In this document: positions 2,615 through 64,000 of the stretch, piece by piece | How positions within the stretch are numbered: the stretch's first letter is position 1 | Layout: every line of letters begins with the position of its first letter | Notes under the pieces: model-generated | What the model was told of the DNA's origin: nothing | Seen by the model: the letters and a program-made list of their open reading frames with translations, nothing else | Database searches by the model: none | Assembly (NCBI RefSeq): GCF_016903815.1 | Contig: NZ_CP069973.1 | DNA: 64,000 nt | Direction: 5' to 3' (one strand) | DNA from: Escherichia coli | Lineage (GTDB): Bacteria; Pseudomonadota; Gammaproteobacteria; Enterobacterales; Enterobacteriaceae | Position numbers and translations under genes: made by a program

Positions 2615-3189
2615 AATAGAAACTCATTCGAAAAGGGAATGATGCAATGATAATTGCCACAACCTATTTTTACCATCTATAGATGGTTTTATTTACATAT
2701 TATTGGTGAATGCAAGACGTTATTTTTACCAGCCATAAACTTCTTGATTACATAGTATTACGAAAGGATTTTACTGAGAACCAGAAGTAATATTCCTTAT
2801 CATCAAAATTCATCATCTTTGCCAAAGAAAAATGTTCAGAAAATAATCCATGGGAAATTGCCCGGCGCGCTTACTATTTTTATGGATTGTTAGTCTTTGC
2901 ATGAGCAAGCGGACTGATACATTTCTCTTTGTTCTCATTCAGAAAATCTCATCAGTCGGCGTTCAGACCGGTGTTGTGCTTTATGGATGCGTTACGCTCC
3001 TGATGACGTCATTTGACATTCAACAGCATCACGGGGTCGCACGACATTTCACGTCAGTCAGCGCTATAGCTCAGGAACAAATTTTCCCGAATTGGGATAT
3101 ACCCGCAAAATGCTGGTGTTGTGGGGAGAATTTGGTTGAGTTCGGTAGAAATGATTTTTAGGCAGAACGCTTAAATTGTGGCGTCCTGA

Positions 3190-3221
3190 AACGAAAAACG
3201 GACCTCCGTGGAGGTCCGTTT
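3190..3221 (-). terminator. Stem-loop (AAACGGACCTCC / GGAGGTCCGTTT) with T-rich tail on minus strand; likely the tRNA-Phe terminator
   Basis: Perfect 12-bp inverted repeat at 3196..3207 and 3210..3221 read directly from sequence. Confidence 0.5.
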
Positions 3222-3230
3222 ATATGAATT

Positions 3231-3252
3231 TGGTGCCGGACTCGGAATCGAA
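3231..3252 (-). repeat. 22-nt copy of the tRNA-Phe 3' end (island attachment-site direct repeat), not a full tRNA
   Basis: tggtgccggactcggaatcgaa is the reverse complement of the tRNA-Phe 3' end (GGTTCGATTCCGAGTCCGGGCACCA) with one C missing; homology stops after 22 nt. Confidence 0.7.
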
Positions 3253-3362
3253 AATTTCTTTTATCATATTGATATTAATCTGATTTGTTTGGTTTGATTA
3301 AAAATGTACCCTCAATTATACCCGCAGTCCCTTTTGATATCGAAAGGGAATCACACTCGGGA

Positions 3363-4205
3363 TCAGGCTGAGAGCACAGAAGGAAAGTGCCTGACTATTA
3401 TATCGTTAATTCTGTCAATCAGTTCCAGCCTTTTGAAAGTGATGTGTGCAGATCCCTTCTTAAAGTATTTAATGATAAACATTTCGTCTTCATAGTACTC
3501 TTTACCCTGAACAGACCGGATATGCTCATCCAGACGAATTATGATATTTTCCCGGTTGTCGGGAGTGGGGATGCCACTGAAGAGATGCAGCATCCTTTCC
3601 AGGTCGGCAACCCGGTCAGTCTGTGGTCCGGTGATAAGATGAAATCCCCACCGGCCCCATCTCACCAGATTGTTGACGATAATTTTACTGCCAAATTTAC
3701 AGGGAGAGTTGGTTTTATAATTCCAGCTCAGTCCCCTGAAGACGTTAATCACTCCCCGCTCAAACACCTCATCCTTATTCTGGTGCAGTTGTTCAAATGT
3801 GCTCATAATGTTCGCTTCACTGATTTCCGGAAAATTATCGTACTCCAGTGACCGGTACCATGTATCACGGGTCTGCGCATCCATTAATGACAGCATCCCG
3901 GAGCGTTGCATCAGGTCACGCCAGATTTCACGGTCAAGGTTGCGGGTAATGGCTTTCATTGCCGTTTCAGGTTTCTCCATGAGCCAGCAGCCGCAGCGAA
4001 AATCCTGTTTCATGGCCCAGTCCAGTGCGGTTTTACCGCCAATACTTTCTGTCATTGCTGAGATTTCAGCCAGTTGCCGGATAAGTATGTCGATTTGCAA
4101 CAGTGTACTCTTTCGTACAGCCAGAATGTGGCTGACTGAGGTTGAGCAGATAACGTCCGTATGTCCGTTGACCACTTCCGGACGGGAGACTGTGATTTCA
4201 GACAT
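3363..4205 (-). CDS. Hypothetical protein, DUF4942-like, last gene of the CP4-like module
   Basis: 280-aa ORF directly downstream of the YeeW-like gene; family assignment from memory only. Confidence 0.45.
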   Translation of the reverse strand: MSEITVSRPEVVNGHTDVICSTSVSHILAVRKSTLLQIDILIRQLAEISAMTESIGGKTALDWAMKQDFRCGCWLMEKPETAMKAITRNLDREIWRDLMQRSGMLSLMDAQTRDTWYRSLEYDNFPEISEANIMSTFEQLHQNKDEVFERGVINVFRGLSWNYKTNSPCKFGSKIIVNNLVRWGRWGFHLITGPQTDRVADLERMLHLFSGIPTPDNRENIIIRLDEHIRSVQGKEYYEDEMFIIKYFKKGSAHITFKRLELIDRINDIIVRHFPSVLSA

Positions 4206-62874: not shown

Positions 62875-63389
62875 TCAGCACATGGCGGGGCTTCGTCTAT
62901 GTGGCGTTCATCATTGATGTGTTTGCCGGATACATCGTGGGGTGGCGGGTCTCATCGTCCATGGAAACGACATTCGTGCTGGATGCACTGGAGCAGGCGT
63001 TATGGGCCCGTCGACCGTCCGGCACGGTCCATCACAGTGATAAAGGTTCTCAGTATGTATCGCTGGCCTACACACAGCGGCTTAAGGAAGCCGGATTACT
63101 GGCATCAACAGGAAGTACAGGCGACTCGTATGACAACGCGATGGCGGAGAGCATCAATGGTCTTTACAAAGCGGAGGTAATACACCGTAAGAGCTGGAAA
63201 AACCGTGCAGAAGTGGAACTGGCCACACTCACGTGGGTGGACTGGTATAACAATCGACGATTGCTGGAAAGGCTGGGCCATACTCCTCCGGCAGAAGCAG
63301 AAAAAGCTTATTATGCTTCCATCGGAAACGATGATCTGGCAGCCTGAGTTCACAGATAAAACACTCTCCAGGAAACCCGGGGCGGTTCA

Positions 63390-63532
63390 TTCCTAAAAAG
63401 ACATGTCTTGCCCAATATACTCAACATGAACTAGATCTGGTTGCTGCTCAGCTAAACAACAGACCGAGAAAGACACTGAAATTCAAAACACCGAAAGAGA
63501 TAATTGAAAGGGGTGTTGCATTGACAGATTGA
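63390..63532 (+). pseudogene. IS30-family transposase, C-terminal fragment
   Basis: Translation ...[29 protein letters not shown] matches the IS30-family C-terminal motif. Confidence 0.6.
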
Positions 63533-63538
63533 ATCTAC

Positions 63539-63874
63539 AGTAGCCTTTTTTAATATTTCATTCTCCATTTCAATGCGTTGTAGCTTTTTCCTCAGCTTAC
63601 GTATTTCGATTTGTTCTGGTGTTATCGGAGAGGCTTTTGGTGTTTTGCCCTGATGCTCATCACGCAGTTGTTTGACCCATCTTGTCATTGTGGAAAGGCC
63701 AACATCCATAGCTTTGGCGGCATCTGCCACCGTGTATTTCTGGTCAACAACCAGTTGAGCGGATTCGCGTTTAAACTCTGCGCTAAAATTTCTTTTTTTC
63801 ATTGGAGCACCTGTGTTGTTCTGAGGTGAGCATATCACCTCTGTTCAGGTGGCCAAATTCAGTGTGCCACTTCA
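63539..63874 (-). mobile_element. IS911 fragment (left inverted repeat and 5' part of orfA)
   Basis: [49 protein letters not shown] matches IS911 OrfA, diverging after ILKKAT; terminal ...AGTGTGCCACTTCA. Confidence 0.8.
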
Positions 63875-64000
63875 AGCCGGGAGCGGCGTCAGCCAGTCTC
63901 CCTTTACCCGCGCTTTTTCGGAAAGCCCACCCCAATGTTTTTCTCCTACACCCCAGCCGGTCAGCAGGACCTTATCCCCGGTCTGATATTCAGGATGTGA

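Follow-up and report, generated by a model that had tools for sequence, protein, structure and literature searches.

We analyzed a 64,000-nt stretch of Escherichia coli DNA (the window), which begins with cadB and cadC, and find that from position 3253 onward it most probably consists of the opening 60.7 kb of a genomic island, 74.9 kb long in total, inserted in the 3' end of the tRNA-Phe gene pheU. The island would belong to the class with a P4-type integrase found at pheU and pheV across many E. coli, and we give this reading a probability of about 0.9. All of the testable defining features of a tRNA-Phe genomic island of this integrase type were found: insertion at a tRNA 3' end with flanks collinear to an empty-site reference, a distal direct repeat of the tRNA 3' end (22-23 bp, here 3231-3252), an intact tRNA with an adjacent three-domain tyrosine integrase at the proximal boundary, and variable presence across strains. 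The tRNA and the integrase lie outside the window and were observed in two matching strains, 2779 and 7/2. An earlier description of positions 2615-64000, made without database searches (the sequence-only reading), had proposed a degraded mosaic island at this site.

The cadC-side boundary

BLAST alignment to the K-12 cadA-dcuA region (cadB-cadC-pheU) matched window positions 1-3252 at 98.5% identity and ended exactly at 3252, and positions 3253-64000 had no match to this locus. The K-12 alignment resumes at tRNA-dicD-dsbD in strain 7/2. The break lies 23 nt into pheU, and in sampled genomes with an occupied pheU the K-12 match breaks at the same base. The sequence-only reading had named such an alignment as a check, and the DNA beyond 3252 is indeed not syntenic core. 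The span that it described began at 2615, but the 638 bp of 2615-3252 are syntenic with K-12, and foreign DNA therefore starts at 3253.

At the break lies attR, a 22-nt copy of the tRNA-Phe 3' end that corresponds to the final 23 nt of K-12 pheU, except that its GGG run is one G shorter. This 22-mer, TTCGATTCCGAGTCCGGCACCA, occurs once in the window, on the minus strand at 3231-3252, even when three mismatches are allowed, and at that tolerance the window has no further internal att sites of the kind expected from tandem phe-tRNA islands. Immediately downstream, on that strand, a terminator scan revealed a terminator-like hairpin of 11 pairs (3196-3221) followed by a T-run. The tRNA copy and hairpin described in the sequence-only reading are thus both present, and its statement that the window has no intact tRNA-Phe agrees with ARAGORN, which found no tRNA gene in the 64 kb. 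The same attR string, TTCGATTCCGAGTCCGG-CACCA, is given for many islands at pheV (GI-pheV; PMC11537424 Table 1), and insertions at pheU and pheV have been described with a 22-bp repeat and a one-base shift relative to K-12 (PMC6174562). We considered the missing G as a sign of decay and rejected this, as the shortened string is what the island family normally carries at attR (PMC11537424 Table 1).

Prevalence was counted, here and below, over 5426 complete genomes, with a genome scored when one place covered at least 80% of the query. The uninterrupted K-12-type cadC-pheU-dicD stretch is present in 3692 of them (68%), and pheU is interrupted in about a third. That the 22-mer is a chance match or stray tRNA fragment within ordinary core chromosome is already refuted: none of 100 dinucleotide-preserving shuffles contained a match to it, the match falls exactly where K-12 synteny stops, and 68% of genomes have no large insertion at the site.

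Base composition was not a useful guide to the boundary. GC content varies from 0.35 to 0.57 between modules, with a mean of 0.483 for the island part of the window, and the cadBC flank, at 0.42, lies below most of the island. The GC plot that the sequence-only reading had recommended accordingly separates modules but does not mark the edge, and we rejected GC as a boundary marker.

The integrase end beyond the window

Positions 1-8000 of the window are 100% identical to many complete E. coli chromosomes. Strain 7/2 (NZ_CP023820.1) matches all 64 kb with 1 mismatch and 36 bp extra, representing four more copies of a 9-nt repeat. Strain 2779 (NZ_CP103521.1) was compared over 42.7 kb of the window in total; it is identical over 30334-64000, with zero mismatches, and gives 100% single-piece matches over 1-8000 and 21200-22200. 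We took the gene content of the window from the RefSeq annotation of the identical sequence, converted to window coordinates, and read the DNA past 64000 from these two public genomes.

In both strains the island runs 14.1 kb past position 64000, to window-equivalent 78122, for a full length of 74,870 bp (3253-78122), of which the window holds the first 60.7 kb (81%). This 14.1-kb stretch carries an alcohol dehydrogenase pseudogene, IS1 copies (IS, insertion sequence), an Orn/Lys/Arg decarboxylase between two antiporters, IS3 debris, and a MarR regulator with two further genes before the integrase. The integrase contains the Pfam domains Arm-DNA-bind_3, Phage_int_M and Phage_integrase, and the residues R238, H341-x-x-R344 and Y378 are recognisable in it, assigned by motif rather than by structural alignment. 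Next to the integrase is an intact tRNA-Phe gene, followed by dicD (yjdC), dsbD and cutA. The sequence-only reading had stated that the integrase and the intact tRNA must lie beyond the window or be lost; they lie beyond it, both intact, about 13-14 kb past its end. Its remark that no integrase is in view holds for the intact gene but overlooked two features inside the window, the relic of another integrase beside cadC and a candidate AlpA-type excisionase.

A probable older island at the same site

The relic, equivalent to K-12 yjdQ, consists of about 10 N-terminal codons (IALTDVKCRA compared to MALTDAKIRA in the intact protein, with the start mutated to ATA) fused to the last ~60 codons, and is broken by stops and a frameshift. 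A tblastn search with the 7/2 integrase matched its residues 359-391 and 397-418 to positions 3033-2883 (E ~7e-8 for the window). The K-12 annotation lists the yjdQ pseudogene at the equivalent position, and RefSeq annotates an 'integrase' pseudogene there in enteroaggregative E. coli (EAEC) 042 and other strains. We found no paper on 'yjdQ' in the searchable literature.

The homology extends beyond the relic. The attR flank (3098-3252) and the attL flank (window-equivalent 77990-78145) form an imperfect direct repeat, with a 156-bp match at 89.1% identity, and the spacer between attR and the relic is 89% identical to the spacer between tRNA and integrase at the far end of the island. A ~155-bp end repeat is also found in 042. 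Most simply, the K-12-type DNA that separates attR from cadC would itself derive from an island: a related element would have occupied pheU earlier and left a tRNA-proximal scar in these genomes, K-12 included, before the present island entered the same tRNA gene. On this reading the island ends share ~155 bp, and not 22, because the flank beside attR was left behind by an earlier, related island. Even the 'empty' pheU site of K-12 would then be such a scar, and boundary calls by K-12 synteny adjoin a relic integrase. The ~155-bp end homology could also permit a RecA-dependent, integrase-free loss of the island.

The island is a mosaic of separately distributed blocks

Individual parts of the island differ widely in prevalence. 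The segment with cadBC and the yee module (window 1-8000) is present in 1160 genomes, window 8400-27400 in 332, the full-length grp locus (window 27400-48000) in 456, window 48000-64000 in 88, and the distal 14.9 kb including the integrase and tRNA in 162. As prevalence differs by module, the modules have separate histories.

Comparison with individual strains revealed exchange and decay at the level of single blocks. PRO_A-1534 has the cadC-side 21 kb in common with the window at 98.9% identity and then, just after the AlpA-like gene, switches to dsdCXA, a restriction-modification system and tia. EC-16-35 carries the window's version at 99.8% identity without the IS2 in the ImpA' region, and at the position of the window's helicase stump it has an intact set of DEAD-box helicase, ATPase and TerB-N genes (45186-49601 of the EC-16-35 locus), possibly a cassette of defence type that the window's lineage has lost. 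We therefore consider it highly improbable that the whole 75 kb came in one integration as it now stands, with no later module exchange. A single att pair and the lack of an internal tRNA-Phe repeat in the window would be expected from one event, but block prevalence ranges over 1160, 332, 456, 88 and 162 genomes, the same left 21 kb is joined to other cargo in PRO_A-1534, the integrase and ends of the 042 island enclose mostly different cargo, and the IS2 insertion and helicase truncation are absent from EC-16-35 despite its 99.8% identity. The relatives compared make this locus a clean example of island evolution through block exchange and IS decay.

The sequence-only reading had proposed that module junctions coincide with IS fragments. 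This was the case for about three of 11 junctions, at ~24.5, 50.0 and 60.2-63.8 kb; about eight others, near 8.4, 11.0, 14.3, 16.7, 21.2, 27.3, 48.0 and 55.3-56.1 kb, have no annotated IS. The complete IS2 (53024-54353) marks no module junction, being a simple insertion flanked by a target duplication.

These observations suggest a history whose order of events we infer as follows. An ancestral element with an attP matching the last ~22 nt of tRNA-Phe would have recombined with pheU by means of its own tyrosine integrase, leaving the intact tRNA and integrase at the dicD side (attL) and the 22-nt partial copy at the cadC side (attR). The site would have been used before, with the terminator, spacer and gutted integrase as the scar of the older related island. 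The cargo would then have been reshuffled in place, with blocks swapped among related islands that have the integrase end and the yee-type end in common, and IS-mediated deletions, IS insertions and group II intron insertions would have produced the present mosaic.

Element type and potential for excision

The sequence-only reading had called the island degraded and fixed. Its degradation is evident from pseudogenes, IS debris, the broken intron in the grp locus and the less-decayed version in EC-16-35. The data do not establish that it is fixed: it retains both att sites, the integrase frame and a candidate excisionase, and could still excise by means of its integrase together with the AlpA-like protein. 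For related islands, deletion rates of 1e-3 to 1e-6 through the action of the integrase and a recombination directionality factor (RDF) have been reported (review PMC7545054).

Several points weigh against the island reading and its mobility. The AlpA-like gene and the integrase are separated by 52 kb, and the former may come from what was once an element of its own. Excision could also occur less often because attR and attL differ by one base (PMC11537424 discussion). The sequence past 64000 comes from matching public genomes rather than from the window's own source.

Two other element types were weighed against a strict genomic island. Ten selected proteins compared to PHROGs returned only integrase, excisionase or unknown families, and the annotation of the 75 kb, made with no scan of every open reading frame (ORF), lists no genes for capsid, tail, terminase, lysis or phage replication. 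This makes it unlikely that the element is a decayed cryptic prophage of the P4/CP4 type, as might be proposed from its P4-type integrase, AlpA-like protein and 'inovirus Gp2 family' protein, and from a yee-type module that is that of the K-12 cryptic prophage CP4-44 (PMC11537424 discussion). The DNA is moreover mostly metabolic cargo and IS debris, and the distinction is partly one of naming.

Very unlikely, too, is an element that is or was mobilisable or conjugative (an integrative mobilisable or integrative conjugative element, IME or ICE). The end module has annotated antirestriction, RadC, DUF932 and toxin-antitoxin genes. Genes of these kinds are typical of DNA entering by conjugation. 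ICEEc2 also inserts at pheU and pheV (PMC11537424). Relaxase, coupling protein and type IV secretion genes, however, are not annotated in the window or in the other 14 kb, in an annotation made with no dedicated hidden Markov model (HMM) scan of all ORFs. A genomic island with its own P4-type integrase remains our preferred reading.

Cargo and other features

Features of the window and of the distal end are collected in Table 1. The cargo of this lineage's island is metabolic and stress-related rather than classical virulence, comprising the grp microcompartment, a second pseudouridine module and a second decarboxylase/antiporter set.

The yee/CP4-like module encodes DUF4942 and DUF957 proteins, a DUF5983 remnant, the CbtA toxin and YeeU antitoxin, and DUF987 and RadC/JAB proteins, followed by an antirestriction protein, DUF932, DUF905 and hypothetical proteins, a helix-turn-helix (HTH) regulator and a GTPase.

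Next to it, the 3.6-kb low-GC block encodes two proteins that had no match in PADLOC, NCBIfam or PHROGs; Pfam gave nothing for the 407-aa protein and only matches with E>0.01 for the 176-aa protein. Relatives are found in Enterobacteriaceae only and are all 'hypothetical', those of the 407-aa protein being few, at 33-37% identity. This protein has an invariant N-terminal Cys/His cluster (C8, C13, C29, H32), and its AlphaFold model, built on a 10-sequence alignment, had a mean predicted local distance difference test score (pLDDT) of 64 and a predicted TM-score (pTM) of 0.42, too poor for a meaningful fold search. Two separate and more speculative suggestions, which we regard as doubtful, are that the block encodes a new island-borne function, for instance a regulator or an anti-phage or anti-plasmid factor, and that the island might be lost by RecA action at its ~155-bp ends.

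In the pseudouridine module, the kinase, the pseudouridine-5'-phosphate glycosidase and a NupC-type transporter are on the plus strand (16896-20093) and the sugar kinase is on the minus strand. The module is ~77% identical to the core psuKGT genes, and other genomes carry it as a block by itself (window 16714-21241). The 9-nt repeat TCCACCTTC has 6.3 copies in the window, 10.3 in 7/2 and ~11 in other genomes that are otherwise 100% identical; in 7/2 it sits within an annotated hypothetical gene of 144 bp that lies upstream of the one for the sugar kinase.

The grp locus contains shell proteins, the glycyl radical enzyme and its activase, aldehyde and alcohol dehydrogenases, a phosphotransacylase, a propionate kinase and a two-component regulator. 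In some genomes the match is confined to the part running from window position 32051, just past the lower end of the grp intron, through grpA to 48000. The locus lies within a 28-kb segment bracketed by a 351-bp inverted repeat (96%), formed by the IS2 fragment at 24541-24891 and the start of the complete IS2 (53024-53374), and inversion of this segment by homologous recombination is possible. The only other long internal repeat in the window is one 62-nt inverted pair.

Toward the window's end, the gene for a NERD+UvrD protein, UvrD/PcrA-like by NCBIfam at scores below the cut-offs and also present in the 042 island, is a candidate anti-phage defence gene by its PADLOC match. The ibrA-like region gave weak BrxP/DndC-like and 3'-phosphoadenosine-5'-phosphosulfate (PAPS) reductase matches. 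Past the window, the second Orn/Lys/Arg decarboxylase and its two basic amino acid/polyamine antiporters are bracketed by IS1 (window-equivalent ~65784-71301) and lie ~70 kb from the native cadBA acid-resistance genes.

Table 1. Features of the 64,000-nt window and of the distal island end, in window or window-equivalent coordinates. RND, resistance-nodulation-division; T6SS, type VI secretion system; TRF, Tandem Repeats Finder.
Feature	Position	Strand	Evidence or remark
cadB	1-711	minus	annotation
cadC	1076-2614	minus	annotation
Relic of older P4-type integrase, K-12 yjdQ equivalent	2883-3067	minus	tblastn and translation; within K-12-shared flank, outside present island
pheU-downstream flank including terminator hairpin 3196-3221	3098-3230	minus	common to K-12; three-way alignment
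attR, 22-nt copy of tRNA-Phe 3' end, cadC-side island boundary	3231-3252	minus	TTCGATTCCGAGTCCGG-CACCA, one G fewer than gene
yee/CP4-like conserved end module	3363-10969	minus	RefSeq annotation of identical 7/2 sequence
Low-GC block (0.37), two unannotated genes	10970-14600		GC scan
407-aa orphan gene	11070-12293	plus	without family match
176-aa orphan gene	13456-13986	minus	without significant family match
Inovirus-Gp2-family protein	14656-15387	plus	annotation; PHROGs match
Acyltransferase	15908-16360	plus	annotation; PHROGs match
Second-copy pseudouridine utilisation module and sugar kinase	16896-21206		annotation
9-nt tandem repeat TCCACCTTC	21643-21699	plus	TRF; 6.3 copies
YagK/YfjJ-domain protein, hypothetical, AlpA-type protein	22534-24235	plus	annotation
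AlpA-type excisionase/regulator candidate, 77 aa	24002-24235	plus	phrog_2790 'excisionase and transcriptional regulator', E=6e-10
IS2 end fragment, at true module junction	24541-24891		transposase pseudogene annotated
RND efflux permease pseudogene, TetR/AcrR regulator, small HTH protein	24903-27135	plus	annotation
grp locus, grpS to grpA, 20 kb, glycyl-radical 1,2-propanediol dehydratase microcompartment	27492-47846	minus	RefSeq/NCBIfam names
Degraded group II intron between grpP and grpO	31963-33660	minus	Rfam domains 31963-32034 and 33372-33660; reverse transcriptase in fragments
ECs1377-family DNA-binding protein remnant, hypothetical, DUF4222 protein; backbone block	48197-49276		annotation
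IS3-family transposase (integrase-core) remnant, at junction	49997-50257	plus	annotation
NERD+UvrD-type helicase/nuclease, annotated '3'-5' exonuclease'	50400-52145	plus	PADLOC C3a187, E=2.4e-137
T6SS gene remnants: ImpA N-terminal, POTRA, VasL fragments	52539-55084	plus	annotation
Complete IS2 splitting T6SS remnants	53024-54353		target duplication AAGTGG
ibrA-like PAPS-reductase-family gene, IbrB-like gene, PerC-family regulator, two hypotheticals	56124-59380	plus	annotation
Helicase stump	59428-60219	minus	annotation
IS debris: IS3-family remnant with group II intron, then IS3, IS30 and other transposase fragments	60199-63840		annotation
Second group II intron, intact ltrA at 61276-62784	~60605-62874	plus	Rfam Intron_gpII 62788-62874
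Alcohol dehydrogenase pseudogene, cut by window end	63875-64000	minus	annotation
Tyrosine integrase, P4-type, 421 aa, intact	window-equivalent 76660-77925		strains 2779, 7/2
tRNA-Phe, intact, identical to K-12 pheU	window-equivalent 78123-78198		strains 2779, 7/2

Comparison with known systems

Elements of this kind, the site and the 22-nt repeat are long established, pheU is a textbook hotspot, and many public genomes contain this sequence in annotated form. The K-12 cryptic prophages CP4-44, CP4-57 and CP4-6 resemble the island in having a P4-type integrase next to a tRNA or tmRNA gene, in their AlpA-type regulator and YfjJ/YagK-like genes, and in a far-end module running from the GTPase to CbtA/YeeU. 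Those elements are 12-34 kb long and lie at other sites, whereas the present island is 75 kb long and holds mostly metabolic cargo.

The GI-pheV/intP4-type islands (PMC11537424) are similar in having a P4-type integrase by an identical tRNA-Phe, the same attR string, a 50-110 kb size range, mosaic cargo and yee remnants, and differ in lying at pheV rather than pheU. Site, 22-bp one-base-shifted repeat and type IV toxin-antitoxin genes are likewise common to the pheU insertions of Shiga toxin-producing E. coli (STEC) without the enterocyte effacement locus (LEE) (PMC6174562) and to the pathogenicity islands at pheU (PAI-pheU) of CFT073, S88, CE10 and ED1a (PMC7545054). The virulence cargo of these islands includes P pili, IreA, aerobactin and Hek, whereas the window has no classical virulence operon. 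In the searchable literature we found no paper that combines pheU with a microcompartment locus, nor a name for this particular mosaic.

The closest comparison is with the 117-kb pheU pathogenicity island of EAEC 042, published by Dudley et al. 2006 (as cited in PMC2808357). The two agree in site, orientation, attR junction and the integrase-tRNA-dicD end (98.4% nucleotide identity), and they are built on a collinear frame of cadC, integrase relic, attR, yee module, DUF4222 block, NERD-UvrD/ImpA', ibrAB-perC, IS1A, integrase, tRNA-Phe and dicD. Identity varies by block, at 86-94% for the yee module, 91% for window 48201-49716 and 95.6% for ibrAB-perC, where the PerC protein has the same accession. 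Counterparts in 042 exist for only ~25% of the island DNA in the window. The low-GC block, the pseudouridine genes, the RND/TetR remnants and the grp locus are absent from 042, as are, past the window, the decarboxylase and two antiporters; the complete IS2 is also absent, and the 042 IS3 pseudogene lacks the group II intron. Conversely, the Sci-1 and aai T6SS clusters, pic, Ag43 and a helicase/methylase block are found only in 042, which at the equivalent of window ~50.0 kb has ~29 kb more (Sci-1 T6SS and a GIY-YIG gene; 042 positions 22811 to 51767). We found no counterparts of aai, Sci-1 or pic in the window or the rest of the 7/2 island, which contain only the ImpA', POTRA' and VasL' fragments that 042 has too. 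By this comparison the island is not the 042 aai island, whose defining T6SS cluster is absent, but a sister to it with the same integrase lineage, the same site and the same backbone order.

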